Positions 34,911 to 61,540 are shown, counted from the stretch's first letter. The stretch: 64,000 bases of DNA from Alphaproteobacteria bacterium (GCA_017472065.1 JAFURB010000010.1:270-64269); one strand, 5' to 3'. The notes: generated from the letters alone by a model not told the origin. Translations and numbers: made by a program.

Positions 34911-34979
34911 AAATTTGCATATTGCATCACAATAATTTATAATAGGTATGTTTTCACAAAAACACTAAAAGGAGACAAT

Positions 34980-35129: not shown

Positions 35130-35130
35130 T

Positions 35131-35158
35131 AAAAATCCCCCGTTCGGGGGATTTTTTA
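35131..35158. terminator. Bidirectional intrinsic terminator at the left edge of the phage-derived block
   Basis: AAAAATCCCCC-GTTC-GGGGGATTTTTT. Confidence 0.75.
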
Positions 35159-35419: not shown

Positions 35420-35422
35420 TTT

Positions 35423-35614
35423 CTATTTCCCTTGGTTTGACAGTTTTTCAATATGGTGGACCAATGCGCGTTGCGATTCCAGCGCACGCAGTTCGTCATC
35501 ACTGGCGTTTGGTCCCAAATATCGTTCAATCGTCATTTTTCGCAGATGCGCCAACACCGCCCGGCCGGACGGTGTCGAAAATGTACGAATATAGTGTTGT
35601 TCAATATCGTTCAT
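35423..35614 (-). CDS. Small phage protein, Bbp19-like pattern
   Basis: FSTPSGRAVLAHLRK....LGP.....ELRALESQRALVHHIEKL resembles the F.s..G..VL..L...eG.R.v.l.I pattern of Bbp19-type proteins found next to portals. Recalled from memory only. Confidence 0.4.
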   Translation of the reverse strand: MNDIEQHYIRTFSTPSGRAVLAHLRKMTIERYLGPNASDDELRALESQRALVHHIEKLSNQGK

Positions 35615-35619
35615 TGGTT

Positions 35620-36849: not shown

Positions 36850-36879
36850 ATTTTTTCCTTTTTGTTGTTTTTGGGTTAG

Positions 36880-39301: not shown

Positions 39302-39377
39302 TGAATTATTTTACTTGCCAAGCCCTTAAAAATTGACTATTATTTTGTCAAGATTATGTTTTTTAAGGAGTTGCACA

Positions 39378-40385
39378 ATGGCCCAAGAAGAAATCATTTT
39401 TCCAAATAACATCAGAAATATTCGTCTGAATAACGGGATGAAAATGACGGAACTGGCACGCCAGGCGGGTTTGTCTTTGTCGGCGGTGTCTAAAATCGAA
39501 AAGGGTGTTCGCCGTCTGAACCAGAAACAATTATTAAACATCTGTAACATCTTGGGGTGCAAATTATCCGATATTTTCATCAAAGAATCTGACGAGGTTG
39601 CAGAACAATGGCAATCCGAAATCAAACGCCGATTGAACGATAACGAAGACGGCGGTCTAAAGATTTTCGGCAGTGGTCTGCGCCGCATCCGCCAACAGGC
39701 CGGAAAAACAATCGCACGCGCGGCAAAAGATGCCGGTATGACATTGTCTGTGTATCATAAAATCGAAGTTGGCCAGCGCGAAATCTATGAAAATGAAATC
39801 GAACCATTGGCGCAATCGTTCGCAATGACCATTGAACAGATGTTTGATAAAATCGCAACAATGTACAAGACGGGCGAATTAAACAAACAAATTAACAAGG
39901 TCAAAGAACGTGTTAAATCTGTTCTGGAACCGGGCAACCCATTGTCCAGTATCGATATGGGCGGTGGTTTGTATGGCGCAAAACTGTATGACAGTGCGCG
40001 CAAAAAACTGGCACCGGTATTTGGTATGCCATCAGGCAAATCAATCGCGTTCAAAAAATCTGACAAAACGATGATTGTTGCACCAATGTCACTAGAAGGA
40101 CGCAGTGGTATTTACGCAGTAATGCCAAATTCAAAGCGTCTGGGCGGTTTTATCCCAGAAAAATCATATGTGTTTGCCGATGTTGATGCCACGGTTGCCC
40201 CAGGCGATTTGGCTGTATGCATTGATGCAGATTTTAATGCACTGGATTCTGAAACAACCGTCAGCGCCCAAATCGTCAGTGTTCGCCAAGATTCCAAGGG
40301 TAAAATATACGGCCAGGTTGCAAGCCCAGAAGAAAAAATCAACGCACAAACAATGCACAAAGTTGTTATGATTGTGATGGACTAA
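39378..40385 (+). CDS. Dual-HTH (two XRE-type domains) regulator with S24/LexA-like C-terminal fold
   Basis: Two HTH_XRE cores (MTELARQAGLSLSAVSKIEKG; IARAAKDAGMTLSVYHKIEVG) plus a ~130-aa C-terminal beta-rich domain (..VAPGDLAVCID..) reminiscent of S24 peptidases. Catalytic Ser/Lys not evident. ATG 39378 after AAGGAG. Confidence 0.6.
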   Translation: MAQEEIIFPNNIRNIRLNNGMKMTELARQAGLSLSAVSKIEKGVRRLNQKQLLNICNILGCKLSDIFIKESDEVAEQWQSEIKRRLNDNEDGGLKIFGSGLRRIRQQAGKTIARAAKDAGMTLSVYHKIEVGQREIYENEIEPLAQSFAMTIEQMFDKIATMYKTGELNKQINKVKERVKSVLEPGNPLSSIDMGGGLYGAKLYDSARKKLAPVFGMPSGKSIAFKKSDKTMIVAPMSLEGRSGIYAVMPNSKRLGGFIPEKSYVFADVDATVAPGDLAVCIDADFNALDSETTVSAQIVSVRQDSKGKIYGQVASPEEKINAQTMHKVVMIVMD

Positions 40386-40436
40386 GAATAAAACGTCCAC
40401 CACAATCATTTTCCACCCAGGAGAGAGAGCAAAACC

Positions 40437-41093
40437 ATGAAAGCACGAATAACCGCCACGGCACAAAAACTGTTGAACCTGTATCGCCAAGAACACGTTA
40501 TCATCGGTGGATGGGCGGCGATTAATCCTATATTTGTTGCCGAAGCAACCGAAGATGTAATCAAAGAATTACGCGAAATGCCAACTGGTAAAATGCTGGT
40601 CCAGCATATCGAAAACCTGAAAAGCGGTAAAACACCAATGAATTCAATTGAACCAGAACTGGTCCCGTATGGTGGGATGATGGGACAATCTGGATTGACT
40701 GATATCAGGTTGGTGGCCAAGGATTTATCTGAACTGCAATCCGCGATAAATGCATTTACACCCGACCAAAGCGGTCTGAACATGATTTCAGAATTGCCAT
40801 TGGTGCGCCGATTTGGCGAAGAGTGGCAAAATGCAATCCGTGATGCATTGGGACAGTATCCAGATATCCAGGCCAAGTGGGATGTTGTTATTAAAACATA
40901 TCGCGCATATCAATTATGGGACAGTGCCAGCCAGATTGTTAACGAACCAATTGATGAACGCACACGCGCCGAAATCCAGGCCGATATGCCAGAATATGAA
41001 ACATACCTGCCGATGTTTGGGGATGCGGGAAATGAATTGCTGACCAGATTGCGTACATTTATTAGTTCTGTTAAATCAGACGAAAACGCATAA
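40437..41093 (+). CDS. Hypothetical protein (218 aa)
   Basis: ORF with a GAGAGAG purine tract upstream. No family recognised. Its stop faces the stop of the terminase N-fragment across the palindrome CGCATAAAATTATGCG. Confidence 0.45.
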   Translation: MKARITATAQKLLNLYRQEHVIIGGWAAINPIFVAEATEDVIKELREMPTGKMLVQHIENLKSGKTPMNSIEPELVPYGGMMGQSGLTDIRLVAKDLSELQSAINAFTPDQSGLNMISELPLVRRFGEEWQNAIRDALGQYPDIQAKWDVVIKTYRAYQLWDSASQIVNEPIDERTRAEIQADMPEYETYLPMFGDAGNELLTRLRTFISSVKSDENA

Positions 41094-41095
41094 AA

Positions 41096-41731
41096 TTATG
41101 CGGTGCGATATATCGTATCCATCGTATGTGGTGTCCCAATATAAATCATTGCCCCATTTGGCGACAGAATAAAATCCAGTTCACGCAATCGTTCACGCAA
41201 ATTTTCCCGTTTTTGTGCGGTGTTTGATGTATTTGGAACCTCGACATCGTCACAGATTATTAAATCTGCACGCATACCAGTTATGTTGCCATGGATACCC
41301 TGGCAAATCACAGATGGTTCACGAATTCCAATTGGACGATTTATGGTTATTCGGTCGGATGCCCAATCGCGACGCGATGACGGAATCAGGTCCGCACACA
41401 ATGGATGATTTTCCAGAATATGACGAATATGCATAACCATACGCGATGCCAGTGTCGTATGCGCCGACAGAATCAATATTCGGGTCTGGGGGCATAACAG
41501 CAATGTACACGCAGCAAAAATTCCAACAACTGTTGATTTGCCAGAATGTCGAAATGCCATCAACAGTCCACGATGTGTATCATCACACAGAACCCCGACC
41601 AGAAATTCCATAATCTGGCGGTGATGGGTGGGCGTTTCATACCCCAGGACACGATTCCATGTATCCAGAAAGTTATAATAGGCCGTAATCATCACTGATG
41701 TTACCAGGGGTGGTGGATGTGATAAATCCAT
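41096..41731 (-). pseudogene. Terminase large subunit, N-terminal (ATPase) fragment, T7 gp19-like
   Basis: Walker A FRHSGKST, Walker B DLIICDDVE, ends ..IYIGTPHTMDTIYRTA* where T7 gp19 reads [20 protein letters not shown]. The continuation lies 3.3 kb away at 36880..37746. Confidence 0.8.
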
Positions 41732-42230
41732 AGTCGTTGATCAGATTTGGCCGCACATTATCCAACACCATTATCAAATTTCGATACAGCCCCAGCACAC
41801 CACCACCGGTCATTTTATCTTGGATAAGACTGTTTGTGTATTCCAAGAAATCAATCACATTTGTATGTGTGTTGCGCCACTGTTCAATATCTACATTTGG
41901 CGCATGCAGGTCTTTTAGGGCCTCAAGCAAGAAATTAAAGTCCGAATTCAGGTGTTCTGGGTCTATTTTTGCGGTCGGTTGGTAATCAACAACACGGTTT
42001 AGTGCAACCTGGCGATAGATATCAATACGACTGGCAGATGCGGGCGCATTGGCAAACACAACACGGCCACCGTCAAATGTGGTGTTTTCAATTACAGAAT
42101 ATTCATCTGTACCCAACACATGTTCATCGATTGCAACACGGATATCAGCCGCCTGGAAAAACGGAAAAGAAAATTCATATTCCGTTGTTGTGCCGTCTGA
42201 AATATAAGATACTTTATACATATTATTCAC
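41673..42230 (-). CDS. Tail-fibre N-terminal (tail-docking) domain only, T7 gp17-like
   Basis: YKVSYISDGTTTEYEFSFPFF...IRVAID...RIDIYRQVALNRVVDYQPTAKIDPEHLNSDFNFLLEALKDL follows the T7 gp17 N-domain pattern. It is 185 aa, so there is no distal receptor-binding part. Confidence 0.6.
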   Translation of the reverse strand: MNNMYKVSYISDGTTTEYEFSFPFFQAADIRVAIDEHVLGTDEYSVIENTTFDGGRVVFANAPASASRIDIYRQVALNRVVDYQPTAKIDPEHLNSDFNFLLEALKDLHAPNVDIEQWRNTHTNVIDFLEYTNSLIQDKMTGGGVLGLYRNLIMVLDNVRPNLINDYGFITSTTPGNISDDYGLL

Positions 42231-42242
42231 CCTGCCCTATAT

Positions 42243-42590
42243 TTATCCAACCAATTCGTCAAAACGACTTAACAATGTTTTTAACAGATTTGGTTTGTTA
42301 GCCTTAATCGATTTTAATTTCTTTTGATTTGCGGCGCGTTTTTCATCGTATGGTTTGGCGGTTTCTGATTTTATACGGGCCAATACCGCGCCCTGGGTCA
42401 AACCGCGCGATGACACACCCGATGCGCCGTATTTAGCGCGTTGGGCCGCCAATGTCTTTTTTATCAGGTTTGTCTTGGCTGACTCGTCCGCGGCCATTTG
42501 TGCCAAGATTTCTTGGCGGGCATTTTTTGCATTTCGTTTGTTTTCTTTATAGTCTAAGATTTCACTAACATCTGATACCAATTGTCCCAT
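42243..42590 (-). CDS. Small basic phage protein (115 aa)
   Basis: Lys/Arg/Ala-rich helical ORF between tubular B and the fibre stub. No family recognised. Confidence 0.4.
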   Translation of the reverse strand: MGQLVSDVSEILDYKENKRNAKNARQEILAQMAADESAKTNLIKKTLAAQRAKYGASGVSSRGLTQGAVLARIKSETAKPYDEKRAANQKKLKSIKANKPNLLKTLLSRFDELVG

Positions 42591-42630
42591 TATATTTCCC
42601 CTTTGTTGAATTCAATTAATTTGTTGTTCA

Positions 42631-44352
42631 TTAAATGTTATACCAACCAGATACACAGACCGATAAAATCGTGGCTGGGTACGGCTGGTTGCCATGAATT
42701 GTCCAATATGGCGCAACACAGTTATGCGATGTCCCCAAAACATTGACATGTACATCGCCTGAAAATCCGGGCGCATCATCTGAATATATTTCATTTGCCA
42801 TATTGATACGCATCCCATTGATGTATATGGATTTTGTATCCAATATGCGGGCGGACACCTTTCTTATTCGCAGGCGCGATGCATTGTGTGCCGATGCACG
42901 CATTGGCAGTGATGATGCACGGAACGCGAAATCATATTTATCTGTGTCACGCATCGCGTCGGCCGAAAATTTTTCCAGATTATATGTGTCGCCACGATTG
43001 GTGACAACATATGTAATGCCATTAACAACAACCACAGATTTGAACGCACCATATGTTTTGTATGCACCCCAGGCACTTATCCCCAATGCTGAATTTTGAT
43101 TCAAGACGGCCATATTTCCGTCTGCCATAACGATGTACAATCGATGCAAAGAATCATTATATGCAATGTCAATTGGCAATGTCATCAAATGTTTGGAAAA
43201 AGAGCATAAATCCAGTGCGCTGTAGTTTTCACCCAATTCATCCAGTGTTAATTCGCGTATGTCGCGCAGATTCTTGGATATGAATACGGTGCTGTCTTCT
43301 ATCTTTTGTGGGGCAAGATATCGTGATGCACAACTGCCCACGGATGTGTGTTGTTTTATATCAACCACAGATGGTGTCAGGGGCTTGCTGGATATCGCCC
43401 ATTCGCCAACAGATGTTAAAATTTGCAGATTATCACTGCTGACGACGGTGCAAATTTGCTGGCGCTGTTGTGAAAGCAGGGTTATAAAAATTGCTTCGTC
43501 ATCAAGTCCGGTTCCAACATCAAAGTTTTTGTGATTGCCGACCTTGGACATCCAAACACCGCCCGGATATGAACGCGAACCACCAAATACCAATCTGTCT
43601 TGGTGAAAAGTAATACTGATTGGCCAGCCACGGGCCGGACTGAACGCAGATTCAAACCAATCGGCGATTGGGGCGCTGGGTAATGTACAGGCATCGTTGA
43701 TGTATGCGATGACCTCGGTCGGGCTGATGTATTCTTCGATAAGCCATTGATGATTTAACAATACAAATCGTGTTCCAACATATTGCGTGGTCCAGAAATC
43801 TGAACTGGTTGTGAATTTGGCATAATTATTGCCACGATCGCTGGATGACACAGAAATCTTGATATCATTTGTATCTTCGTATCGCATGAACGGCATATTA
43901 ACCGACATGTCTGTGTCATTTCGGGCAAACATAAAGTTCGACAAACTAAAACCATCTGATGTTTTTTCAAGCACCTGGGGGCAATGGTCTGGATGAACAA
44001 ATATCATTGTGCCAAAACGCTGGGCGTATTGCAGTTTTGATAAATCATCCGCCGACCATGGCGATACCAGGTCTGAAACAAACACGTTGTCTGCATAAAT
44101 CAATATATGACCCGATGTCATTACAAGGATATAGTTTTCTTGTTCAGACACCGAAAAACCAACCAATCGCGCATCACCAGTTAATGAGGCAATATGTGCC
44201 AGACCACATCGGCGCGACAATCCACCACCTGGCAAAACATCCATGTTTTCCAAGCACGACAATCCATTTATATCATCGCGCGCATAGAATTCTGGTGATA
44301 CTTCGCCCGATGCAAATGAGTTCTGTGTTTTTATAAAATTTGCCATTATCAT
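42631..44352 (-). CDS. Tail tubular protein B (T7 gp12-like)
   Basis: N-terminus ..FASGEVSPEFYARDDINGLSCLENMDVLPGGGLSRRCGL matches the F.aGE.SP...gR.D...Y......N......G....RpG opening of gp12-type nozzle proteins. Position after gp11-like gene. Confidence 0.72.
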   Translation of the reverse strand: MIMANFIKTQNSFASGEVSPEFYARDDINGLSCLENMDVLPGGGLSRRCGLAHIASLTGDARLVGFSVSEQENYILVMTSGHILIYADNVFVSDLVSPWSADDLSKLQYAQRFGTMIFVHPDHCPQVLEKTSDGFSLSNFMFARNDTDMSVNMPFMRYEDTNDIKISVSSSDRGNNYAKFTTSSDFWTTQYVGTRFVLLNHQWLIEEYISPTEVIAYINDACTLPSAPIADWFESAFSPARGWPISITFHQDRLVFGGSRSYPGGVWMSKVGNHKNFDVGTGLDDEAIFITLLSQQRQQICTVVSSDNLQILTSVGEWAISSKPLTPSVVDIKQHTSVGSCASRYLAPQKIEDSTVFISKNLRDIRELTLDELGENYSALDLCSFSKHLMTLPIDIAYNDSLHRLYIVMADGNMAVLNQNSALGISAWGAYKTYGAFKSVVVVNGITYVVTNRGDTYNLEKFSADAMRDTDKYDFAFRASSLPMRASAHNASRLRIRKVSARILDTKSIYINGMRINMANEIYSDDAPGFSGDVHVNVLGTSHNCVAPYWTIHGNQPYPATILSVCVSGWYNI

Positions 44353-44358
44353 CCCCTA

Positions 44359-44877
44359 TTAAAACCGAGAACTAATTAGTGAAAAGTTTTCTATGTGATT
44401 ACCGCCACCGATGGAACTGTCAATGAATTTGGCATTTTGCAGTTCTGTTTCGTACAGTGCGGCCAACATTCTGAATACTGTTTGATCGCCTGATAACGGG
44501 ACACAAAATTCCAATGCCAGTTTGGTCGCAACCAATGATGAAAAATAACTGGGGTATTGTTCGGTGCCAACACGCACACATGCCGTGATTGTTATTGAAT
44601 CAGATGCGGCAATAATATTGTTGCCAATAATTTGACCACCTGATTTCAAAACACGCAAAACATCACTGGGGATTGTGAAATTCCCATCGGCATTTACATT
44701 TAAGGTTATTTGACGCGTGGCAAAACGCCATGGATGTGATGCAATCAGGGCATCTGTTATCGGGTCAAATAATGTACGCGCCAATTGTGATGATACACAA
44801 TCATCACTTAAAGACTGAATTGGTTCTTCGCCCAGTTTAAGCAATGCCATTGAACATAAATCTATTTTTGTAAGCAT
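44359..44877 (-). CDS. Tail tubular protein A / adaptor (T7 gp11-like)
   Basis: MLTKIDLCSMALLKLGEEPIQSLSDD...LFDPITDALIASHPWRFA, a typical gp11-type N-terminus. 172 aa. Confidence 0.72.
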   Translation of the reverse strand: MLTKIDLCSMALLKLGEEPIQSLSDDCVSSQLARTLFDPITDALIASHPWRFATRQITLNVNADGNFTIPSDVLRVLKSGGQIIGNNIIAASDSITITACVRVGTEQYPSYFSSLVATKLALEFCVPLSGDQTVFRMLAALYETELQNAKFIDSSIGGGNHIENFSLISSRF

Positions 44878-44897
44878 ACTGTCCCCATTTTTGTTTG

Positions 44898-44932
44898 ATA
44901 AAAATTATCGGTGGCGCATTATCACGCCACCG
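44898..44932 (-). terminator. Intrinsic terminator after the capsid/small-gene unit
   Basis: Minus strand CGGTGGCG-N8-CGCCACCG followed by ATAATTTTTAT, positionally like T7 T-phi after gene 10. Confidence 0.55.
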
Positions 44933-44961
44933 TTATGTATATGTAACAAGAATCAATAAAA

Positions 44962-45195
44962 CTATGCCAATGCAGCCGTGGTAACGTTGCTGGTCGTGAT
45001 ATTGATTTTCTTTATCGCAGTGTTATCTGATGCGTTGATGATTACAACATCACCAATATTCATTAATGTTTTTACATCGTTAAAATATCCAGTGGCTGTA
45101 ATTGTTGCCAATGTTTCTGCGCCAGATGCATAGTGCCACAATGTAAATCCATTTGCATATGCAATCACAGATAAATTTTTATTTTGAAATGCCAT
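44962..45195 (-). CDS. Small phage protein (77 aa)
   Basis: Start trimmed to ATG 45195 (MAFQNKNLSV...) after AAAGGA. No family recognised. Confidence 0.4.
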   Translation of the reverse strand: MAFQNKNLSVIAYANGFTLWHYASGAETLATITATGYFNDVKTLMNIGDVVIINASDNTAIKKINITTSNVTTAALA

Positions 45196-45226
45196 AATAC
45201 TTATCCTTTGGTTGAAATTGTGACAC

Positions 45227-46054
45227 TTATGCAGTTGTCGCATCCGCACATTTGACGCGTACAATACCATCGTTATCAATCAAGACGGCACCCTGGGACA
45301 TACTGTTGCTGATAAAGTGCGCGGCACGTTCACCATGCCATGAAATGTCTGTCTTGACTTCTTGGCCACAGGCGTGTCCAACGCTGGACGCGTGATAGAT
45401 AAAGCAGTCACGATTTGTATCCGTAGATGGTAAACCGTTGTGCAGAACCCATGTGATGCCCAGCCATTTCTTGGCTTCGAAACCACTGACCAATGGGGTG
45501 GAATCACCAACATATTCAGACGACACGAATTCGTCCATCGACAATAATTCGTTCCACTGGTGTACACCAATTACGGCAAAACGACGACCATCATCTGGAA
45601 CATCGTTTGTGTTCAAAACTTCGACCGCAGACAAAATCAAATCTTTGGTCAGGCCGGTGGAATAATCACCAACAGACAGTGTTGATGCGTTCATTGCATC
45701 GATGATTAATTCATCTGTCTTGCGCCCCAGTGCATATGCACCCGCAGACGCAACAACACGGCGTTCATCAATGTTTACCTTTAATTCATCCAATGCATCA
45801 ACCCAATCACCTGCATAATAATCTGTTAACATACATTCAACAGGTTCATGATTCAGATTCATTACTGGAACAATACCGTGGCGTGATTTTGTGCTGGCGG
45901 TGCCACGACCAACCTTTTGAAATGTCGTGGATGCACCAACGACACCTGATTTACTGCGAACGGTTGAACGCAGTTTTGTACCCATCTGTTGATAGGCCAA
46001 ATGAACATCGGCTTCGAATTGTTTTACGAAAACCTGATCAATTGAAACGGACAT
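45227..46054 (-). CDS. Major capsid protein (T7 gp10-like, HK97 fold inferred)
   Basis: VKQFEADVHLAYQQMGTKLRSTVRSKSGVVGASTTFQKVGRGTA parallels T7 gp10 KVFGGEVLTAFARTSVTTSRHMVRSISSGKSAQFPVLGRTQA. Position after the scaffold gene. Confidence 0.72.
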   Translation of the reverse strand: MSVSIDQVFVKQFEADVHLAYQQMGTKLRSTVRSKSGVVGASTTFQKVGRGTASTKSRHGIVPVMNLNHEPVECMLTDYYAGDWVDALDELKVNIDERRVVASAGAYALGRKTDELIIDAMNASTLSVGDYSTGLTKDLILSAVEVLNTNDVPDDGRRFAVIGVHQWNELLSMDEFVSSEYVGDSTPLVSGFEAKKWLGITWVLHNGLPSTDTNRDCFIYHASSVGHACGQEVKTDISWHGERAAHFISNSMSQGAVLIDNDGIVRVKCADATTA

Positions 46055-46123
46055 ATTTTTTCCTTTTTATGTTTGGTTAAATAAAAAATACACTTTTGTG
46101 TAAATATTTTTGTATGCCGGTTA

Positions 46124-46139
46124 TGCAAAAATTGCGCCA
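46124..46139 (-). promoter_or_regulatory. Candidate sigma54 (-24/-12) promoter upstream of the capsid gene
   Basis: The minus strand reads TGGCGCAATTTTTGCA, matching TGGCAC-N5-TTGCA spacing exactly, ~70 nt upstream of ATG 46054. Confidence 0.3.
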
Positions 46140-46180
46140 AGAATACAAAATAGATGCGGGGTCGTGGCGACTTGTCCGCA

Positions 46181-46253
46181 TAAAAAAATCAGTCAGACCT
46201 GGGATACATCTGACTGATATTTTCAAAAACAAAACCCGGACAATTGTCCGGGT
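46181..46253 (-). terminator. Two tandem intrinsic terminators after the Lys/Ala-rich gene
   Basis: Minus strand: ACCCGGAC-AATT-GTCCGGGT+TTTGTTTTT, then ATCAGTCAGA-N11-TCTGACTGAT+TTTTTTT. Confidence 0.65.
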
Positions 46254-46275
46254 AAATTAATAATATGAACTTATA

Positions 46276-46755
46276 TTATTTCTTTTTCACGCATTTTTTC
46301 GCGCATGCTTTTTTTGCAACTGGTTTGGCAGCAACTTTTTTCGCAGGCGCTTTTTTCGCAACTGGTTTTTTAACTGCTACTTTTTTTGCAACTACTTTTT
46401 TTGCAACAGGTTTTGCAGCAACTTTTTTTGCAGGTGCTTTCTTTGCAACAGGTTTTTTAACTGCTACTTTCTTTGCAACTGGTTTGGCAGCAACTTTTTT
46501 CGCAGGTGCTTTCTTTGCAACTGGTTTTGCCGCTGGTTTCTTTGCAACTACTTTTTTTGCAGCAGGTTTTGCAGCAACTTTTTTCGCAGGTGCTTTTTTC
46601 GCAACTGGTTTTGCGGCTGGTTTCTTTGCAACTACTTTTTTCGCAGCAGGTTTTGCAGCAACTTTTTTCGCAGGTGCTTTTTTTGCAACTGGCTTTGCCG
46701 CTGGTTTTGCAGCTGCTTTCTTTGCAGCAGATTTTTTGAACAGGCTGAATGCCAT
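46276..46755 (-). CDS. Lys/Ala/Pro-rich histone H1-like (AKP-repeat) basic protein
   Basis: 159 aa, five tandem units each beginning [15 protein letters not shown], strong RBS GAAGGAGAG, own terminators. Other frames and the opposite strand across the repeat are artefacts. Confidence 0.7.
46300..46740. repeat. Coding tandem repeat (units of ~72-87 nt)
   Basis: Repeated ..GCAGCAACTTTTTTCGCAGGTGCTTT(T/C)TT(C/T)GCAACTGGTTTTGC.. blocks. Two units are near-identical at an 84-nt period. Confidence 0.8.
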
Positions 46756-46860
46756 CTTTCTCTCCTTCGCTATTTTTTGGATAGAACAAATCCGTTTTGT
46801 TCTTACTTTATATTTTATCTGAATATCAAAAAATAGTAAAGTAGAAAGTGAATTTTTTTC

Positions 46861-47517
46861 TTATGAATATAATTTTTTGAAACCGTTTTCTATTTTTCTG
46901 ATGTATTCTGCATCACCATCACGCCAGTATTTTGGATCGCGCATCATGCGACGCAAATCAGAATCTGATAAATTTTTTGTTTCACTTTTATCGGTTTCAA
47001 CATTTGGTTCCATCGATTGCATCATTCGATAAATGCCTTGGATTCCCTGGGGCGTAGAACACAGTTCGTCAAATGCATCGCTGGGTAAAAACTTTTTTCC
47101 AAATGCATCAATTGCGCGCAATGCGTCGTTCATTTTTTCTGTGCCACCAAAAAAATTCTTTAGTTCATTGATTGCATTTTGTTCATTTTGTGTTGAATAC
47201 AAATCAGATATAACAGGTGCTAAAAATTCATTTGCGATGTCATATATTTTTTCAACCTGGGATGATGTCAATCCAATATCATGAAATTTTCTGCGTAAAT
47301 TTTCATCATCAAACAATTCATTTGTTGGATATTGTTCGGATGTTTCCGGCACACCAATCGCACGATTAAAACGCGCACGCGTTTTTTCATCGCACCCATC
47401 ACTTGGTACCGTTATCATTGTACCAATTTTTCGTTCTAATTCAGAATATGATTTCATTAATGCATCTGTGTTTAATGTACCATCTTCGTTCAAAAATTTT
47501 TCTGGGATTTTGTCCAT
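46861..47517 (-). CDS. Capsid assembly scaffolding protein (podovirus type)
   Basis: MDKIPEKFLNEDGTLNTDALMKSYSELERKIG opening, typical of podoviral scaffold proteins. Acidic and helical. Position upstream of the capsid gene. Confidence 0.55.
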   Translation of the reverse strand: MDKIPEKFLNEDGTLNTDALMKSYSELERKIGTMITVPSDGCDEKTRARFNRAIGVPETSEQYPTNELFDDENLRRKFHDIGLTSSQVEKIYDIANEFLAPVISDLYSTQNEQNAINELKNFFGGTEKMNDALRAIDAFGKKFLPSDAFDELCSTPQGIQGIYRMMQSMEPNVETDKSETKNLSDSDLRRMMRDPKYWRDGDAEYIRKIENGFKKLYS

Positions 47518-47522
47518 CTTTA

Positions 47523-47711
47523 TTATCCTTTGTTTTCGTTTGACTTACGCAGAAAGTAAATTCCACCAAGTGTAAAAATACTTTGTAACATTACAAATAT
47601 GTCGCTGTCCCCGACCAGATACGCACCAATCGCAGACAATATGCCAACCGCCGAAACTATATAAGTTCGACGACCGGCTAAAAATCCACCACTAATAAAT
47701 TTATTCATCAT
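47523..47711 (-). CDS. Holin-like small membrane protein (62 aa)
   Basis: Two hydrophobic segments and a charged C-terminus (RKSNENKG), directly downstream of the hydrolase gene. Confidence 0.45.
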   Translation of the reverse strand: MMNKFISGGFLAGRRTYIVSAVGILSAIGAYLVGDSDIFVMLQSIFTLGGIYFLRKSNENKG

Positions 47712-47719
47712 ATTTCCAT

Positions 47720-48130
47720 TTATAAATAAAACAGCAATTCATCAACATCCAGAATATATCCACGCGCACGCGCCCATTCAGGCATTATGCAACCATGATG
47801 AAAACACGTTGCACCACGACACATGTCTGGCAAACCACCACATAACATTCGTCCGACCACGCGCAGACACATTTGAAATGCACGACTGGTGGGGGCGACC
47901 GATAACAATTCATGACGATTTGATGATGGTTTCAGTGATTCAAACATATCGGTATCAGATATTATTTGTGCGATACTTTTTCCGGTGGCACGCGATGCAT
48001 TATTAATCATGGATACCAGTGCCTCGACCGCGGTCAGTGATGATGCAGATGTTTCTGCATAAACAACACGCGCAATTGTGTACATCAACTTTCTGGATTC
48101 ATCTGGATTTTTTATCAGTCGTAAATTCAT
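47720..48130 (-). CDS. SleB-type cell wall hydrolase (Hydrolase_2 family)
   Basis: IARVVYAETSASSLTAVEALVSMINNA......IAQIISDTDMFESL follows the SleB/CwlJ domain pattern common in alphaproteobacterial phages and GTAs. Confidence 0.7.
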   Translation of the reverse strand: MNLRLIKNPDESRKLMYTIARVVYAETSASSLTAVEALVSMINNASRATGKSIAQIISDTDMFESLKPSSNRHELLSVAPTSRAFQMCLRVVGRMLCGGLPDMCRGATCFHHGCIMPEWARARGYILDVDELLFYL

Positions 48131-56479: not shown

Positions 56480-56555
56480 GGCCCCATCGTCTAGAGGCCT
56501 AGGACACCGCCCTTTCAAGGCGAGAACACCGGTTCGAATCCGGTTGGGGCTGCCA
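56480..56555 (+). tRNA. tRNA-Glu (anticodon UUC)
   Basis: GGCCCCATCGTCTAGAGGCCTAGGACACCGCCCTTTCAAGGCGAGAACACCGGTTCGAATCCGGTTGGGGCTGCCA, near-collinear with E. coli tRNA-Glu. One C-A mismatch in the anticodon stem. Confidence 0.88.
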
Positions 56556-56717
56556 AAATTACAACCGACCTTTGTGGTCGGTTTTAATTTTGCCTGTTCC
56601 CACCGAGATGAGAACCGCAGGTTCGGGGCGTCAGTTGGTGAAAACAAGTGTTAACGAAGTTTGAGCCTTACGTAGCGAAAGGGGCCCATGGAGTGAAAAC
56701 GAACATGGGAATCAGAC

Positions 56718-56740
56718 AATCCGGTTGGGGCTGCCAAAAT
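56718..56740 (+). repeat. Perfect 23-nt direct repeat of the tRNA-Glu 3' end (att-like)
   Basis: AATCCGGTTGGGGCTGCCAAAAT occurs at 56537-56559 (within and just after the tRNA) and again at 56718-56740. Confidence 0.9.
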
Positions 56741-56845
56741 AAACAAATCGGGTTTTATACCCGATTTTTCTTTGTTTTCTAATGCTTGCACGAGTTCGTA
56801 AGTTGACGGTTAAAAAATGCTACCGTTTCACATATTTGCGAACTC
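56718..56845 (+). repeat. Junction J0: tRNA-3'-end copy + hairpin + R2 palindrome
   Basis: tRNA 3' copy, AATCGGGT-TTTA-TACCCGATT+TTTTCTTTGTTTTC, then R2-a ACGAGTTCGTAAGTTGACGGTTAAAAAATGCTACCGTTTCACATATTTGCGAACTC. Confidence 0.8.
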
Positions 56846-56902
56846 TTGTTAGACGTTTTTGCCTTTTTATGGTATAATAAGGTTTAGAAAGGAAATGTTT
56901 AT

Positions 56903-57823
56903 ATGAAATTAACCGACGAACAAAGAATAAAATCAATAAAAAAAATATTACAAATGCAACGTCATCCTGTACATAAGGATAAGGGCGATAAAGCCGATAT
57001 ACTTATCAGCAGAACCAAGAATTACCCAGGCATAACTGAAAAATCTACAGATTTTGAACGTTTTTTTGCGATAAGTGGCAAAGATACATATGAAAGCGGG
57101 CAACAATGGTCGTGTGGAACCGAAGCTAAAACATTTTGTTATCTGAATTCAATACTGCCAAAAAATGAGCAGCTAGAAGTTAAGATCATGATAAGCACGC
57201 ATCCAAATCATCTGATAGACAGCATGGCTAACCATACTTTGCCATGTGTCAAAATGGGTGATGGTAAATGGTATGCACTTGAACCTACCTCTGTCGCAGA
57301 AAATCGAATACGTCACCCAATGTACCCAGACATACCATTTCTCATGGATGAATTGAAAGTTGGGAACCAAATTCATCATATTAAAAAAGGGATGGTGGAA
57401 AGAGGAAATCCACCATATGAAATAACCGCAATTATGTCATGGCAAGAATACGAAGAAAAATGTTCTGATTTTGGCACTTTTCTGAAATATGGATCAAAAC
57501 GTGACAAGAAAACAAAAACCATAATTGCAACAATAGAAACGGTATTGCAGCAAATAAATTCAAATGGGCAAATTGGTAATACTTATAATTTCTGTAAATT
57601 AATGCAAGGTTCTAAATTGCCGATAAAGGTTGTTAAACCTAAAGGTTACGATTTTACAGAATTACTAATAAGCATAAATGGGGAGCTGTATAAATTTGGA
57701 ACGAGGCATAAATATGCTATGATCCAAAAACTACAATACAAGATAGATAAAGAATGGACCATGTCAGATTATGTAAAGTTATATAAACAAAATAGTATCA
57801 ATAAAAACAAAGAACATGAATAG
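56903..57823 (+). CDS. Transglutaminase-like cysteine protease fold protein (cassette 1)
   Basis: QQWSCGTEAKTFCYL (Cys), ~39 aa later NHTLPCVKMGDGKWYALEPT (His...Glu/Asp) fits the C-H-D transglutaminase-core spacing H.w.ev...g.W...DPT. AT-rich gene. Confidence 0.5.
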   Translation: MKLTDEQRIKSIKKILQMQRHPVHKDKGDKADILISRTKNYPGITEKSTDFERFFAISGKDTYESGQQWSCGTEAKTFCYLNSILPKNEQLEVKIMISTHPNHLIDSMANHTLPCVKMGDGKWYALEPTSVAENRIRHPMYPDIPFLMDELKVGNQIHHIKKGMVERGNPPYEITAIMSWQEYEEKCSDFGTFLKYGSKRDKKTKTIIATIETVLQQINSNGQIGNTYNFCKLMQGSKLPIKVVKPKGYDFTELLISINGELYKFGTRHKYAMIQKLQYKIDKEWTMSDYVKLYKQNSINKNKEHE

Positions 57824-57846
57824 TGAGTTTAAAATCAGAATTTATT

Positions 57847-58035
57847 CAAAAACACCTTAACTTCTTTCCTGAACCGCAATAATTCTTTGATTTCATCATC
57901 TCGCAAATTGCACAGATGGCCCTGCCAAAAATCAAAAACACCCGTTTGGGTGTTTTTTTGATTGGATTTCCAATACTTTCACGAGTTCGAAAGTTAGATG
58001 TTGAAAACAGACACTGTTTTGCACATTTACGAACA
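57847..58035 (+). repeat. Junction J1: R1 + hairpin + R2
   Basis: AAAAACACCTTAACTTCTTTCCTGAAC...CGCAAATTGCACAGATGGCCCTGCCAAAAA, ACACCC-GTTT-GGGTGT+T7, R2-b ACGAGTTCGAAAGTTAGATGTTGAAAACAGACACTGTTTTGCACATTTACGAAC. Confidence 0.85.
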
Positions 58036-58071
58036 TTTTCAGAGTAACCACTAAAATAACGAGTTTTGGGT

Positions 58072-58650
58072 TTATTTTGTGATAATCTTTCTGAACTTGA
58101 TTAGATTTGTAATTGTTGGATTTCGCCTAGATATTGGCACATTATATTTAATATCTTCAATTGTGTAATTATTGCGCGTCAATATCGATTTTGACCTTTC
58201 GTTTGTATAAACAACACTGGCGTATAATGATTGTAAATTTAATTGGTTCAGTGAATAATCTTCTATTTTTTTAATCGATTGTGTGGCGACACAAAGCCCC
58301 TCGTTTTCTTGGGAAACCCAAAACCAAATCTCAGCATCGTGCGATATTGGGCTAATATTATCAAGCCCAATCATACCAGCAACAGAATTATCCCGCATAA
58401 TAACAAATGGAGCATCATGTGCACTGTTTGCTATTTTACGTTTTATATTTTTATAATATGTATCAACAACATAGGCAATCATAAACAAAATCGTCTTTGA
58501 AAAGTTTGGCGTCACTTTTTTATTTGCCCAAAAAAAGTAAGATTGCAGGCGCGTGCGATTTGCATCCAAAACACGATAAAAATCATGTGAATGTCGCCAG
58601 AGCAAAGAAAAATCTAGTTTTTTTAATTCTATCTTCATAGTTTGAAGCAT
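58072..58650 (-). CDS. GNAT-family N-acetyltransferase (RimJ/RimL-like; cassette 2)
   Basis: ..VAGMIGLDNISPISHDAEIWFWVSQENEGLCVATQSIKKI..., an Acetyltransf_3-like core. The start is uncertain (ATG 58650 or 58638; the track start 58659 is TTG). Confidence 0.65.
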   Translation of the reverse strand: MLQTMKIELKKLDFSLLWRHSHDFYRVLDANRTRLQSYFFWANKKVTPNFSKTILFMIAYVVDTYYKNIKRKIANSAHDAPFVIMRDNSVAGMIGLDNISPISHDAEIWFWVSQENEGLCVATQSIKKIEDYSLNQLNLQSLYASVVYTNERSKSILTRNNYTIEDIKYNVPISRRNPTITNLIKFRKIITK

Positions 58651-58687
58651 AGCACACAAATACAGTTTGTCAATTTTTATATTTCTC

Positions 58688-58875
58688 TAAAAACACCTTT
58701 GCTTCTTTCCCGAACTGCAGAAAATCGTGGACGGTATCTGTTCGTGAATTGCACAGATGGCCCTGTCAGGAATTAAAACCGACCACACAAGTCGGTTTTT
58801 TCTTTGTTTTCAGGCATTCTACGAGTTCGTAAGTCGGGTGTTAAAAATAGCCACCGTTTTGCACATTTACGAACT
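58688..58875 (+). repeat. Junction J2: R1 + hairpin + R2
   Basis: AAAAACACCTTTGCTTCTTTCCCGAAC...CGTGAATTGCACAGATGGCCCTGTCAGGAAT, AACCGACC-N6-GTCGGTT+TTTTTCTTTGTTTTC, R2-c ACGAGTTCGTAAGTCGGGTGTTAAAAATAGCCACCGTTTTGCACATTTACGAACT. Confidence 0.85.
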
Positions 58876-58939
58876 ATTAAAAATAAAAGGTTAGAAATCT
58901 AACCTTTTTCATGGTTCGTATTTATCGTGGGTATCTGAT

Positions 58940-59710
58940 TTATTTTTCTGCTTCTGCTATTTTCTCTCGTAATTCTGGTTCATTTTGCTGAACAAAATTA
59001 AACGACGTTTCCATAAAATCACAAATATCTTTACGGTTCAGATAAAATTTTTTCATGGTATCAAAAATTAATTCGCCCTTTATTGTCATATCGTAGAAGT
59101 ATGAATAAGCAATATATTTTGGGTGTTCTATTAAATCATTTATGGCTGAATTACGAATAATGGTTTCAACGACTATCTCTGACAACAACCATTTGATATT
59201 TGGAAAATCATATTCAGAAGGATTGTCGTTAAAATGCTTATTCCAGAAATAGAACCAAGCAAAATGGGTTATTTCATGTAATGCCATTGTCATTGCATAT
59301 GTTGGATCAAAATAATGATAAATATCAAAAGTATGTGTTTCAATATCACGCGGGCAAATGGGGTTTAATCCAACCTCAGCAACCATATCATTCAAAATAC
59401 CTCTGCAATCATTATTAAAAGCAGAACTGTATGCACTATTCAATTTGTCTGCTATTTTTTCCCATTCCGCACTAAACATATTTATAGAGTTTTCTATGAT
59501 TGGTTTTCTTTTCCCTGCCTGAATTTTCATTTGTTCAGTAATATATTCAAATCTTTTTTCTTCGGGTAAAGATATGGCATATTCATAATTTAAATCAGGG
59601 TATGCTTTGAACAATTGCTTTTGCCACCAGACAGTCGTTCCGTCTTTCTGGTGGAACAGTATAAAATCTAAATCTCTTTCAAAATCTTTTTGTTGCCAAG
59701 TTAGTTTCAT
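58940..59710 (-). CDS. Hypothetical protein with HExxH motif (cassette 3)
   Basis: 256 aa. MALHEITHFAWFYF contains HEITH. Followed by hairpin terminator AAGGTTAGA-AA-TCTAACCTT (58886-58908). Confidence 0.5.
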   Translation of the reverse strand: MKLTWQQKDFERDLDFILFHQKDGTTVWWQKQLFKAYPDLNYEYAISLPEEKRFEYITEQMKIQAGKRKPIIENSINMFSAEWEKIADKLNSAYSSAFNNDCRGILNDMVAEVGLNPICPRDIETHTFDIYHYFDPTYAMTMALHEITHFAWFYFWNKHFNDNPSEYDFPNIKWLLSEIVVETIIRNSAINDLIEHPKYIAYSYFYDMTIKGELIFDTMKKFYLNRKDICDFMETSFNFVQQNEPELREKIAEAEK

Positions 59711-59764
59711 GTAATAACCTTGTAGTATTTCCCTTAATTATATCACAAAATTTGCATAAATATT

Positions 59765-59870
59765 TTTATTTCTTTCCCGAACGACAACAAATCACGAATA
59801 AAATCATCTCGTGAATTGCACAGATGCCCCTGCCAAAATCAAAGCCACCCGTTTGGGTGGTTTTTATTTT
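59765..59870 (+). repeat. Junction J3: R1 + hairpin, no R2
   Basis: TTTCTTTCCCGAAC...CGTGAATTGCACAGATGCCCCTGCCAAAATC, CCACCCG-TTT-GGGTGG+TTTTTATTTTT. What follows is unrelated to R2. Confidence 0.8.
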
Positions 59871-59907
59871 TGTTAAAGCAGACCCAACCGGATGCGCCAT
59901 AGTGCCG

Positions 59908-61290
59908 TTAAATACGAATTTCTGTATCTATACTTATATTTTTTACAAACATATTATCGTGAGACACAAGTAATATTGCACCACGATATTGATTCAACGC
60001 ATCTTCCAATATACCAATACTTTTGATTTCAAGATTGTTGGTCGGTTCGTCCAATATCAATAAATCAGGTTGTTCAGAACTGCCCAGAACGGCCGCTAAT
60101 GTTGCCTTTAATAATTCCCCACCAGATAATGTCCCGACACACTGTTGCGACGCATCCCCACGAAAACCAAAATTCGCCGCAATCGCATGAGCATCATGCT
60201 TAAGACACCCTGATATTTCCATGATATTTTCAACTATGGTTTTGTTTTTGTCTAAAACGGATAAGTCTTGATTTACATAGGCTATCTTGCCAAAGGTTTT
60301 AACCGTTCCTGAATCTGGCTTTAGTTCGCCACAAATAATTTTTAACAATGTAGATTTTCCAGAGCCATTTTTACCAACCAATCTTATCCTTGATTTTCCA
60401 TACATTGTGAATTCAAAATCTTGGAATATAATTTTATCGCCATACGAATAATACAAGCCAGATATATTTATCAGTTCTTTACTATAAAACGGTTTATTTG
60501 GCATTGGTATTTTAATCGTTTCGTTTCGCATTTGTTCTGACAAAGATTGTTGAATAGATATTTGTTCAACCAATTTCTTTTGAATAATTGCGCGCTTTTT
60601 AGCCTCGGTTTCTTGACTTTTGCCTTTTAGAGCATTTTGTTCCAATCTGCTTCGTCTGGAACTATTTATTTCTTTTTGTTGTTTGAATTCGTGATGCTGT
60701 CGTGTGTTTTGTGCAACAGTTATCGTATTATTCAATCGCGCAATAGATTTCTGGGCATTGGTATATTTTGAATAGATATTGTCAGATTCTATTTTTTTCT
60801 GTTCCAGATAGAAATCATAATTGCCACCATAGACTTTTAATTGCCCATTATGTAATTCGATTATTTTATCCATTTGTTGTAACAGTTCCCGATCGTGCGA
60901 AACAATTACAACACCATTTGGATATGTGTTCAATCGATTAAAAAATACCTGTTTTGCATCTGCATCCAGATTATTGGTCGGTTCATCCAACAGTAAAATA
61001 TCCGCACTTGATTCAAAAGCCCGCATCAGTGCAAACATTTGTTGTTCACCACCGCTTTTGGAATCTGATACATTTATTTGACTTAACATATAAACACTTG
61101 CGTTTTTAGTAACCGCACCAGAATCAGGCAATAAGTCCCCCGCCAACAACCGCAAAAGTGTTGTTTTGCCAGATCCGTTATCGCCAACAATAGCCACGTG
61201 TTCATTGTCGTTAAAGGCAATAGAAGCACTGTCTAATAAATCATTGTCGTTATAACCAAAAGATACATTTGATAAAGAAATTAAAGCCAT
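59908..61290 (-). CDS. ABC-F family ATPase (two ABC domains, no TM; ARE/translation-factor type; cassette 4)
   Basis: Walker A GDNGSGKTT and GKNGSGKST, signatures SGGEQ and SGGEL, charged inter-domain linker. Start trimmed to ATG 61290 after AAGGGG. Confidence 0.85.
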   Translation of the reverse strand: MALISLSNVSFGYNDNDLLDSASIAFNDNEHVAIVGDNGSGKTTLLRLLAGDLLPDSGAVTKNASVYMLSQINVSDSKSGGEQQMFALMRAFESSADILLLDEPTNNLDADAKQVFFNRLNTYPNGVVIVSHDRELLQQMDKIIELHNGQLKVYGGNYDFYLEQKKIESDNIYSKYTNAQKSIARLNNTITVAQNTRQHHEFKQQKEINSSRRSRLEQNALKGKSQETEAKKRAIIQKKLVEQISIQQSLSEQMRNETIKIPMPNKPFYSKELINISGLYYSYGDKIIFQDFEFTMYGKSRIRLVGKNGSGKSTLLKIICGELKPDSGTVKTFGKIAYVNQDLSVLDKNKTIVENIMEISGCLKHDAHAIAANFGFRGDASQQCVGTLSGGELLKATLAAVLGSSEQPDLLILDEPTNNLEIKSIGILEDALNQYRGAILLVSHDNMFVKNISIDTEIRI

Positions 61291-61540
61291 AATAAAACCC
61301 CTTATATTGCAATTAAACGAATACATATTTCTATGTGCGATTTATAAAAATTACAATATTATATACGCATCGGGTTTTATCCTTTGTTTTTATTATAATT
61401 GAATTGTATTATAAATATTTGTTAAAGCAAGAAATTTTATCAATAAACACTTTGATTTCTGGCAGTTCGTAAGTTGGGCCGCAAAAAAACATTGACAAAA
61501 ACAATTTTCGGGACTAGCCTTGTAAAAAAAGATACAGAAA

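Follow-up and report, generated by a model that had tools for sequence, protein, structure and literature searches.

Introduction

The tycheposon islands of Prochlorococcus (bioRxiv 10.1101/2020.12.28.424599) and the additive flexible genomic islands of Alteromonas (PMC4898812, PMC4119200) are the described systems closest to the subject of this report, an array of small gene cassettes directly 3′ of a tRNA-Glu(UUC) gene in a 64 kb stretch of DNA from an alphaproteobacterium (GCA_017472065.1, JAFURB010000010.1:270–64269). This stretch, analysed at its full length, is referred to as the window; it also matches the ENA contig ERZ27256821:k141_1133814, and coordinates without a locus name are counted from its first nucleotide. 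The host is Candidatus Enterousia (order Rs-D84), an uncultured group with reduced genomes of ~0.75–1.0 Mb (PMC12306168). Like the islands named above, the Enterousia array is anchored at an intact tRNA 3′ end in a streamlined genome, with partial tRNA copies between units, newcomers that push older units inward, a content that differs between close strains, integrase-bearing elements that are rare among common integrase-less ones, and a tyrosine recombinase as the likely agent. It differs from them in that its units are ~1 kb in length and mostly single genes with no replication module seen, that every unit bears a conserved composite junction (~190 nt) that recurs in dozens of species and at different tRNAs, that the partial tRNA amounts to only 6–10 matched nucleotides and that the candidate integrase is a catalytic domain only (191–199 residues).

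Integrons offer a second comparison, having in common with the array mostly one-gene cassettes without a recombinase of their own, a conserved junction repeat, accessory, resistance or defence-like cargo, a single chromosomal site and variability between strains. Unlike integrons, the Enterousia array is without IntI and without an attC consensus or structural covariation, has its unit boundary at a tRNA-like core, holds genes in both orientations with their own promoter and terminator, and is anchored at a tRNA gene and not at attI; it functionally resembles an integron but fails every defining feature of one. Cis-mobilizable elements (CIMEs) are integrase-less, att-flanked elements that are mobilized in trans by related integrative and conjugative elements (ICEs); they are decay products of a particular ICE and occur a few per genome. 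The Enterousia units are likewise non-autonomous, att-bounded, in tandem with or near autonomous relatives and dependent on an integrase in trans, if the proposal made below is correct. Unlike CIMEs, they form a population of small cargo cassettes with standardized ends, a cassette system rather than debris. No description of this system was found in the full-text literature on Enterousia, Rs-D84, tycheposons or additive islands.

We consider it probable that the locus is a tRNA-Glu-anchored additive island of small non-autonomous cassettes that are moved by site-specific recombination. This assignment draws on the anatomy of the cassettes, a layout that recurs across the lineage, the turnover of cassettes between strains, the clustering of breakpoints at a short core, the covariation of this core with the anchoring tRNA and, in other islands, the linkage of an integrase to junctions of the same type.

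Organization of the array

The tRNA-Glu(UUC) gene (56480–56555, + strand), an attB-like anchor, is intact as judged by ARAGORN and Rfam (tRNA, 56 bits), and its 3′ end (...GGTTGGGGCTGCCA) constitutes the primary core. It is followed by a non-coding module (56556–56736, + strand), which comprises a bidirectional terminator (56563–56583), an inverted degenerate 3′ half of tRNA-Glu, ~80 nt and a copy of the tRNA-Glu 3′ end. An exact direct repeat of 23 nt, which begins in the T-loop of the tRNA and runs past the CCA, is located at 56537–56559 and 56718–56740. Three cassettes follow and span 56737–59835. In each, a terminator hairpin is followed by R2 (a palindromic element, invariably 57 nt long), then by the cargo, as a rule a single gene that has its own promoter and may face either way, and finally by R1 (~85 nt), whose terminus (...CTGCCA) is a degenerate version of the tRNA acceptor end. 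Within arrays, R1, its core, the terminator and R2 thus adjoin as a composite site of ~190 nt, which is attP-like.

Cassette 1 (56737–57927, + strand, 1191 nt) contains a terminator (56745–56767), R2 (56789–56844), a promoter-like site with a TG extension (56850–56878), a gene for a 306-residue protein (56903–57823, + strand) and R1 (57833–57927, ending ...GGCCCTGCCA). Cassette 2 (57928–58768, − strand, 841 nt) contains a terminator (57934–57957), R2 (57980–58034), a GNAT acetyltransferase gene of 192 codons as called (58072–58650, − strand; Pfam Acetyltransf_3/4/1) and R1 (58678–58768, ending ...GGCCCTGTCA). Cassette 3 (58769–59835, − strand, 1067 nt) contains a terminator (58775–58799), R2 (58821–58875), a gene for a 256-residue HExxH protein with the motif HEITH (58940–59710, − strand), which has an extended −10-like sequence (TGATATAAT) closely upstream, and R1 (59740–59835, ending ...GCCCCTGCCA). 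The array closes with a distal junction of P-O-B′ type (59836–59907, + strand), in which a terminator (59841–59864) without R2 is followed by an inverted tRNA-Glu-3′-like 17-mer (59876–59892); the latter is the truncated start of an ~215 nt non-coding module that is intact in a related strain (locus L079; related loci are designated by L numbers).

A profile search of the window (nhmmer, profile of ~90 related copies) located R1 only at the three positions above (E of 1e-21 to 1e-24) and full copies of R2 only at the corresponding three positions (E of 1e-15 to 1e-19). Apart from these and one partial R2, the 64 kb contain no further convincing copies. Behind every core stands a G+C-rich hairpin with a T-run, and the majority of these hairpins also read as terminators on the opposite strand; 11 terminator-like sites were observed, compared with 3.8 ± 1.9 in shuffled sequences. 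An Rfam scan of the locus and nine related loci returned only tRNAs at threshold.

A preliminary description of the window, made from its sequence alone, had listed five gene blocks as cassettes bounded by versions of one composite repeat. The repeat was recovered where it had been placed (R1 in three copies, R2 in three full copies and one partial copy), as were the last 23 nt of tRNA-Glu in the first junction, the lack of R2 in the last one, the shuffling of hairpin types between junctions and an eroded remnant beyond the ABC-F gene described below. The A+T-richness that had been seen by eye corresponds to a drop in G+C content from ~45% to 31–35% across the cassettes. The GNAT and ABC-F genes were confirmed by Pfam and the HExxH protein by its motif; the labels of a transglutaminase-like protease (the 306-residue protein) and of YkgJ were not confirmed, as the 306-residue, 256-residue and YkgJ-like proteins and the product of orf155 match no Pfam family. 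Three cassettes are retained from the original five, for reasons given with the flanking genes.

Strain variation and breakpoints at the core

Ten contigs of the same species were recovered through an identical META-domain protein, which is encoded just upstream of tRNA-Glu; compared over 4 kb, their flanks are 98–99% identical, with the exception of one comparison. Between tRNA-Glu and the ABC-F gene these contigs, one of which ends inside the array, show five layouts with one to three cassettes. The window has [306 aa][GNAT192][256 aa]; the others have [GNAT188] alone, [GNAT192] alone, [GNAT192][155 aa] or [non-coding module][256 aa][268 aa]. Cassette 1 is carried by only some strains (L075 compared with L076–L084), and the family of its protein was found in 13 loci. 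The GNAT gene of cassette 2 occurs in other strains at other array positions with different combinations of hairpin, spacer and R2. The gene of cassette 3 is missing from most strains and is the first protein-coding cassette in L079, where it stands behind the non-coding module; an exact-protein look-up returned only this same strain arrangement. The distal junction is identical in all strains whatever their cassette content. The array is thus not invariant among relatives, its cassette content varying between strains of one species, and cassettes with 96–100% identity are present in different species, at different array positions and with different neighbours.

The positions at which homology begins and ends were collected from an all-versus-all blastn comparison of the loci, retaining high-scoring segment pairs of ≥88% identity and ≥250 nt. 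A 36 nt window at the core, which accounts for 1.3% of positions, holds 20% of the left and 28% of the right ends of these pairs, a 15–22-fold enrichment. In several pairs of loci (for example L025/L045, L009/L027 and L011/L048) the same DNA stands behind the CCA of tRNA-Glu in one genome and behind an R1 core in the other, with homology beginning ~5 nt before the end of the CCA. R1 and tRNA-Glu have in common only GTTCG and CTGCCAAAA around the core.

Matching of the core to the anchoring tRNA

Sister arrays at other tRNA genes form a natural series in which the core follows the anchor. In the Glu arrays R1 ends in ...CTGCCA and the tRNA in ...GGGGCTGCCA; the corresponding ends are ...CGCGCAACCA and ...CCCGCAACCA in the fMet arrays and ...GCACAACCA and ...CCCCAACCA in the Gln arrays. 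Homology across the three is retained in the more upstream part of R1 (TCGNGAAYTGCACA), in the terminator and in R2, and it is the terminal 6–8 nt that change. Since the body of R1 is kept while its terminus is re-matched to the anchoring tRNA, the terminus is expected to be, and most likely is, the crossover core. This re-matching is the weightiest argument of the analysis.

Two islands illustrate this behaviour. In L207/L208 an initiator tRNA-Met gene is followed by a 9.5 kb element bounded by 20/21 nt repeats of the tRNA 3′ end, beyond which a non-coding module leads to a third repeat; a terminator and an R2 homologue follow, then a two-gene cassette and an R1 homologue ending in ...GAACTGCACACACCGCGCAACCA. 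In L216/L217 a tRNA-Gln gene (...GCCCCAACCA) heads an island with two R1 junctions ending in ...GAATTGCACACCGAGCACAACCA and ...GAATTGCACAGATAGCACAACCA, each followed by a terminator and an R2 homologue. The 20–23 nt repeats that flank the modules begin in the T-loop of the tRNA. Variant R1 cores also occur, one of which (L071) carries the tRNA-Glu acceptor end itself. In some metagenome-assembled genomes (MAGs) a second array or module is present at tRNA-Glu(CTC), which also ends in ...GGGACTGCCA (L003 6107–6181 and L051 5895–5969), and the MAG JAZROV01 has arrays at both tRNA-Glu genes.

Distribution and cargo

An exact-match scan for the R1 core in one genome per species gave 74 loci, of which 73 are from Ca. 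Enterousia or other alphaproteobacterial or proteobacterial MAGs from ruminant and horse guts; the remaining one, in an Acidobacteriaceae MAG, is a chance match. A scan of JGI metagenome contigs with an R2 pattern gave more than 120 loci. There are one or a few loci per genome and a single locus even on contigs of 260–690 kb, so that R1 is not a dispersed repeat; neither R1 nor R2 was found in the unrelated loci L085/L086. All 37 loci that contain a tRNA-Glu gene have it upstream of R1 on the same strand, with the first R1 at a median distance of 997 nt downstream, and most loci without it end close to the first junction. The longest array has at least seven copies of R1 (L068). The arrays are richer in A+T than their surroundings (G+C content of 34.1% versus 38.3%) in 38 of 44 loci. 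A viral origin was considered and rejected, as both the R1 core and R2 are missing from IMG/VR contigs.

Units were delimited from one core end (tRNA CCA or R1 ...CCA) to the next. The 91 units obtained have a median length of 1018 nt; 55 contain one gene, 14 two and seven three, and 14 contain none, being modules of 150–250 nt. Their genes lie 62 times on the minus and 47 times on the plus strand. Among the products are GNATs, a dCMP/MafB19-type deaminase, a nucleotidyltransferase, a VanX-like M15 peptidase, an APH-like kinase, a NERD protein and a C5 DNA methylase.

Junction elements

R2 contains two inverted motifs of the AGTTCGTAA type and has sequence-invariant inverted arms of 11 bp (AGTTCGTAAGT and ATTTACGAACT), which are ~35 nt apart and flank a central A5 tract. 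The AGTTCGTRA-type motif resembles the tRNA T-loop (GGTTCGAAT) and occurs twice, inverted, in R2 and a third time, as AGTTCGTGAA, in R1; to judge from the sequences, a role in accessory or arm-type binding is plausible for it. The R2 arms are the only segments that pair consistently: across 97 copies, no inner helix is found in a consistent register. Folds of R2 as single-stranded DNA are weak (−7 to −9.5 kcal mol−1, z scores of −1.6 to −3.2). No conserved RNA structure was detected in R1 on either strand (88 copies).

Many R1 left flanks bear an extended −10 promoter. On the minus strand R1 contains a frame of 29–36 codons that lacks a start and runs from the core onwards (WQGHLCNSR.D.I.DLL.FGK.IK.FL). 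Of 132 copies, 125 keep this frame open; its variation is biased towards third positions, and dN/dS is only ~0.5, compared with 0.68 in a wrong frame. A profile search of 5.8 billion proteins identified no long protein that ends in this peptide, returning only spurious open reading frames (ORFs) of 33–73 residues, and the peptide has no match in the PDB or Pfam. The idea that R1 represents the C-terminal part of a gene disrupted by an integration event, as in SSV1, was accordingly rejected, since no long ORF reads into any core and no matching protein exists in these collections. The codon-like frame could point to an additional function of R1.

A conserved insert of ~85 nt (CTATGAGTAGCAGAGCGA...GCCGAGCGAAAC) stands between the core and the terminator in L008, L011, L042, L046, L049, L056, L068 and L098 and is related to part of the non-coding modules. 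The latter (150–250 nt; for example 56556–56736 in the window and 6628–6876 in L079) are flanked by repeats of the tRNA 3′ end and have a terminator and, behind it, a degenerate tRNA 3′ half in inverse orientation; they have no match in Rfam and no tmRNA was predicted by ARAGORN. In other species homologous modules are flanked by the end of the cognate tRNA, including tRNA-Glu(CTC). They may represent either minimal integrative elements or genes for small RNAs (sRNAs). On the minus strand of L002 (7033–7123) there is a sub-threshold Rfam match to sRNA-Xcc1 (38.8 bits against a gathering score of 53), an sRNA family associated with integron cassettes.

Candidate recombinase

Searches of the window with IntI1, XerD and lambda Int (phmmer) and with Pfam revealed no tyrosine or serine recombinase, and the same phmmer queries gave no IntI-type enzyme in the 74 genome loci. 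The statement in the preliminary description that no recombinase is in view therefore holds for the window; elsewhere, a candidate mini tyrosine integrase family is linked to the same type of junction. In L098 a 194-residue protein of family PF00589 is encoded beside a 200-residue serine recombinase in a multi-gene unit, which ends in a longer variant of R1 (R1b) and a Glu-type core (CCGGGGCTGCCA) and abuts standard cassettes. It gave the only match to IntI1 by phmmer in the window, the 74 genome loci and 120 metagenome loci.

The family to which this protein belongs has 40 members with 52–98% identity on long chromosomal contigs, 38 of which match PF00589; nearly all have 191–199 residues, with three shorter, apparently truncated members and one of 215 residues. 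Arg40, Lys71, His142, Arg145, His168 and Tyr177 are invariant and align with the catalytic residues of XerD; relative to XerD, ~110 N-terminal residues are missing and only the catalytic domain remains. Among curated families, XerA, XerD, XerC and the invertases of FimB/E type come closest, all with scores far below their cut-offs (56 bits versus 220–335). The mini recombinases are similar to FimB/FimE in their length of ~200 residues and to these and Xer in the R-K-HxxR-H-Y signature; unlike these, they are found as an integrase at the end of a tRNA-flanked element and not at a dif site or an invertible promoter.

Of eight genomic contexts of the mini integrase that were examined, three have R1 homologues within a few kilobases (L098, L207/L208 and L216/L217). 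In L207/L208 its gene is located inside the 9.5 kb element, 147 nt upstream of the tRNA-fMet direct repeat, and in L216/L217 between tRNA-Gln and the R1 junctions. In L214/5 and L219 one or two small ORFs separate the integrase gene from an R1b-like end, behind which lie a tRNA-like core and a terminator. In L209/10 the gene is at a non-tRNA site without R1 or R2; the remaining two contexts are L218 and L220. Because L219 and L214 are syntenic with parts of the window, the family does occur in Enterousia. Direct repeats of the tRNA 3′ end with an intact tRNA, and units that vary in presence and position between close relatives, as expected of tRNA-targeting elements, are seen for the array of the window, and an integrase borne by the element, which the window cassettes lack, is found in the larger related elements L098, L207/L208, L214/L215, L216/L217 and L219. 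On these grounds we regard the mini tyrosine recombinase family as the best candidate for the enzyme.

One or two small ORFs follow the integrase gene in six of the eight contexts, none being called in L207/L208 or L209/L210. They encode 44–65 residues in L214 (10600–11015), L216 (10591–11060), L218 (10601–11011), L219 (10659–10847) and L220 (10602–10736), and 88 residues in L098; their products may be excisionase-like or DNA-binding partners. The large proteins of the arrays were also considered as hidden recombinases and rejected, since by eye and by Pfam they are products of metabolic, resistance or restriction-modification genes.

Small serine recombinases (189–200 residues) are encoded directly upstream of R1b ends in L009/L116 (L009 2522–3091 and 6849–7445, oriented coordinates), L073 and L140 (1087–1659), as well as beside the tyrosine recombinase in L098 (6811–7413); they are a candidate enzyme in place of, or in addition to, the mini integrase. 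The commonest cargo before R1b ends is a 340-residue minus-strand gene at about −1200 to −175 from the R1b core (L018, L046, L114, L154, L156 and L164); L098 has HipA-like, XRE-type partner and RelA/SpoT-like proteins in this position, all labelled by eye only. In L209 (14540–18335) a second Phage_integrase protein of 195 residues is encoded next to hsdS and hsdM, a region that resembles a phase-variable type I restriction-modification shufflon.

Proposed mechanism and alternative explanations

In the proposed mechanism, cassettes would be gained, lost and reshuffled by conservative site-specific recombination, with a crossover in or adjoining the short segment formed by the R1 terminus and the tRNA 3′ end (CTGCCA and A-rich bases), presumably by way of circular intermediates; a crossover within a segment common to both would leave the tRNA intact. 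The recombinase would act in trans, its gene being carried by larger autonomous elements whose right end is of a similar type (R1b and a tRNA-like core), and R1 and R2 would act as binding sites of an arm or accessory type. Additional mosaicism would come from homologous recombination or gene conversion among conserved junction pieces. Serial site-specific insertion at a tRNA attB, with successive B-O-P′, P-O-P′ and P-O-B′ junctions, had been put forward in the preliminary description and gains support here from the conservation of the layout, the strain variation, the core breakpoints and the covariation with the tRNA.

Several observations weigh against this mechanism. A second, weaker breakpoint peak is located at the right end of R2 (4–6% of ends versus 0.5% of positions), and the types of hairpin, spacer and inner R2 combine almost independently of one another and of the genes next to them. 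To the right of the core, conservation is limited to A-richness followed by the variable hairpin, which is unusual for a tyrosine-recombinase core, and the coding-like frame of R1 is unexplained by the model. Neither an empty site nor a circular form was found in the assemblies, and an empty-site pattern had no match in JGI metagenome contigs. In ten related strains, the 10 kb on either side of the array encode no tyrosine or serine recombinase, and only one of ~190 tRNA-Glu-array loci (L098) carries the candidate; the link between integrase and cassettes is one of co-location rather than function and is drawn from a handful of loci, and all of the comparative data are metagenome assemblies.

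The independent reassortment and the secondary peak at R2 indicate that homologous recombination contributes and could explain part of the variation. Taken to its limit, this leads to a model with no dedicated recombinase, in which R1 and R2 are merely portable homology for RecA-dependent exchange or gene conversion after DNA uptake and for deletion between repeats. Such a model would account for the nearly independent assortment of the variable part of R1, hairpin, spacer and inner R2, for the occurrence of one GNAT gene with three or four hairpin/spacer/R2 combinations in strains of one species, for the lack of a recombinase near the array in the species of the window and for microhomology deletions that have fused R1 or hairpins to R2 (L043, L067, L070 and L044). 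Complete junctions are too few for a linkage analysis of their segments to place a single hot spot. The breakpoints, however, are concentrated 15–22-fold at the core and not spread over the ~85 nt of R1 and the 57 nt of R2; tRNA-Glu and R1 are interchangeable as left partners, but the ~9 nt that they have in common are too short for RecA; the R1 terminus is re-matched at tRNA-fMet and tRNA-Gln; and exact repeats of 20–23 nt that start in the T-loop are a classic footprint of an integrase. Homologous recombination alone cannot explain the core breakpoints together with the re-matching of core and tRNA, and we regard this model as unlikely.

The tRNA-3′-end repeats that start in the T-loop, being typical of tyrosine integrases, also argue against a different class of enzyme, which could be one of the small serine recombinases, the host XerC/D (as in the pdif modules of Acinetobacter) or an HUH single-strand transposase with insertion on the 3′ side of CTGCCA. 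Such an enzyme would fit an insertion exactly 3′ of a short unit-ending motif with an unconserved right side, and serine recombinases do lie directly upstream of R1b cores and, in L098, beside the tyrosine recombinase; the AGTTCGTAA motif may also loosely resemble XerC half-sites. They are present, however, in four or five of ~200 loci and are of at least two distant types; no dif-like 11-6-11 site is apparent by eye at the boundary; and R1 has no conserved hairpin, while the hairpin near the left end varies in sequence (a TnpA-type gene was not searched for). A different enzyme class is therefore improbable.

Two further explanations centre on R2 and the junction as such. R1, hairpin and R2 could together be a regulatory or insulating intergenic element, or a repeat comparable to repetitive extragenic palindromes (REPs) or miniature inverted-repeat transposable elements (MITEs), that was spread by duplication and has no role in mobility. 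The hairpins are indeed good bidirectional terminators, the R2 arms with their central A-tract look like a palindromic protein-binding site and many R1 left flanks have an extended −10 promoter. On the other hand, copies are restricted to one or two tRNA-adjacent arrays per genome, with none elsewhere in the window; entire units are present or absent between strains; and the R1 end follows the anchoring tRNA, which together make this reading very improbable. In a true integron, which the preliminary description had raised as an alternative, R2 would be an attC site that folds as single-stranded DNA, tRNA-Glu would stand in for attI and the enzyme would be IntI-like. The mostly single-gene cassettes, the conserved imperfect palindrome of fixed length between them, integron-like cargo and the weak sRNA-Xcc1 match in L002 would all suit it. 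The inner stem of R2, which had been described as variable yet self-complementary in the manner of attC, dissolves in the larger set of copies, and its single-stranded folds are weak; the R2 arms depart from the consensus RYYYAAC/GTTRRRY; the principal boundary coincides with the tRNA-like core, which is ~55 nt upstream of R2; genes lie in both orientations with promoters of their own; and the phmmer search with IntI1 recovered nothing in the window, the 74 genome loci and the 120 metagenome loci but the mini recombinase of L098. The T-arm-like hairpin reported in R1 is likewise peculiar to one junction, that between cassettes 2 and 3. The integron reading is largely refuted, and we attach hardly any probability to it.

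Site-specific recombination at a tRNA-like core is thus the explanation that we prefer, and a broader proposal built on it is offered tentatively, at somewhat less than even odds in our estimation. Ca. Enterousia and its Rs-D84 relatives may possess a dedicated, integron-like system of cassette capture that evolved from tRNA-targeting integrative elements, in which cassettes of ~1 kb with attP-like ends of ~190 nt are shuffled into and out of tRNA-Glu, and in parallel sets into tRNA-fMet, tRNA-Gln and tRNA-Glu(CTC), through a trans-acting enzyme that is a catalytic domain only, perhaps helped by the products of the tiny ORFs, with the last 6–8 nt of R1 setting the target.

Flanking genes

The ABC-F ATPase gene (59908–61326, − strand; two ABC_tran and one ABC_tran_Xtn Pfam matches) has a low G+C content and is followed by an eroded junction remnant (61361–61489, + strand), which consists of a hairpin-like relic (61361–61394, 74% identity to the repeat) and a partial R2 left arm (61463–61489, 74% identity; nhmmer E of 2e-4). 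The ABC-F gene, the genes for 145- and 155-residue proteins and an MFS transporter gene are present in every related-strain contig that reaches them (nine of ten). Since the ABC-F, YkgJ-like and orf155 genes are kept in all of these while the tRNA-proximal genes vary, they are a conserved flank and not current cassettes. The remnant beyond it suggests that ABC-F was once a cassette, and in L064 its homologue sits within a core-to-core unit; it may be an ancient cassette, now fixed, with eroded ends.

Further upstream, at ~34900–48000, T7-like phage genes (Bbp19, head–tail connector, T7-type terminase, DnaB, T7 tail, capsid, scaffold and tube) are interspersed with housekeeping genes. Several strains and another Enterousia MAG (L219) show synteny of this cluster, which may be a domesticated phage or a cluster resembling a gene-transfer agent.

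Biological implications

The array is intermediate between integrons and tRNA-anchored additive islands and indicates that the att site of an integrative element can turn into a portable cassette end common to hundreds of genes, with the core re-matched to three or four tRNAs as a natural series. A minimal tyrosine integrase of ~194 residues lacks the usual N-terminal domains, so site recognition must rely on something else, which makes it of interest mechanistically and as a small programmable integration tool. The cargo of the Enterousia arrays includes resistance-like, defence, toxin–antitoxin and effector-like genes, and for these reduced genomes the compact cassette array may be the main route to a flexible gene pool.

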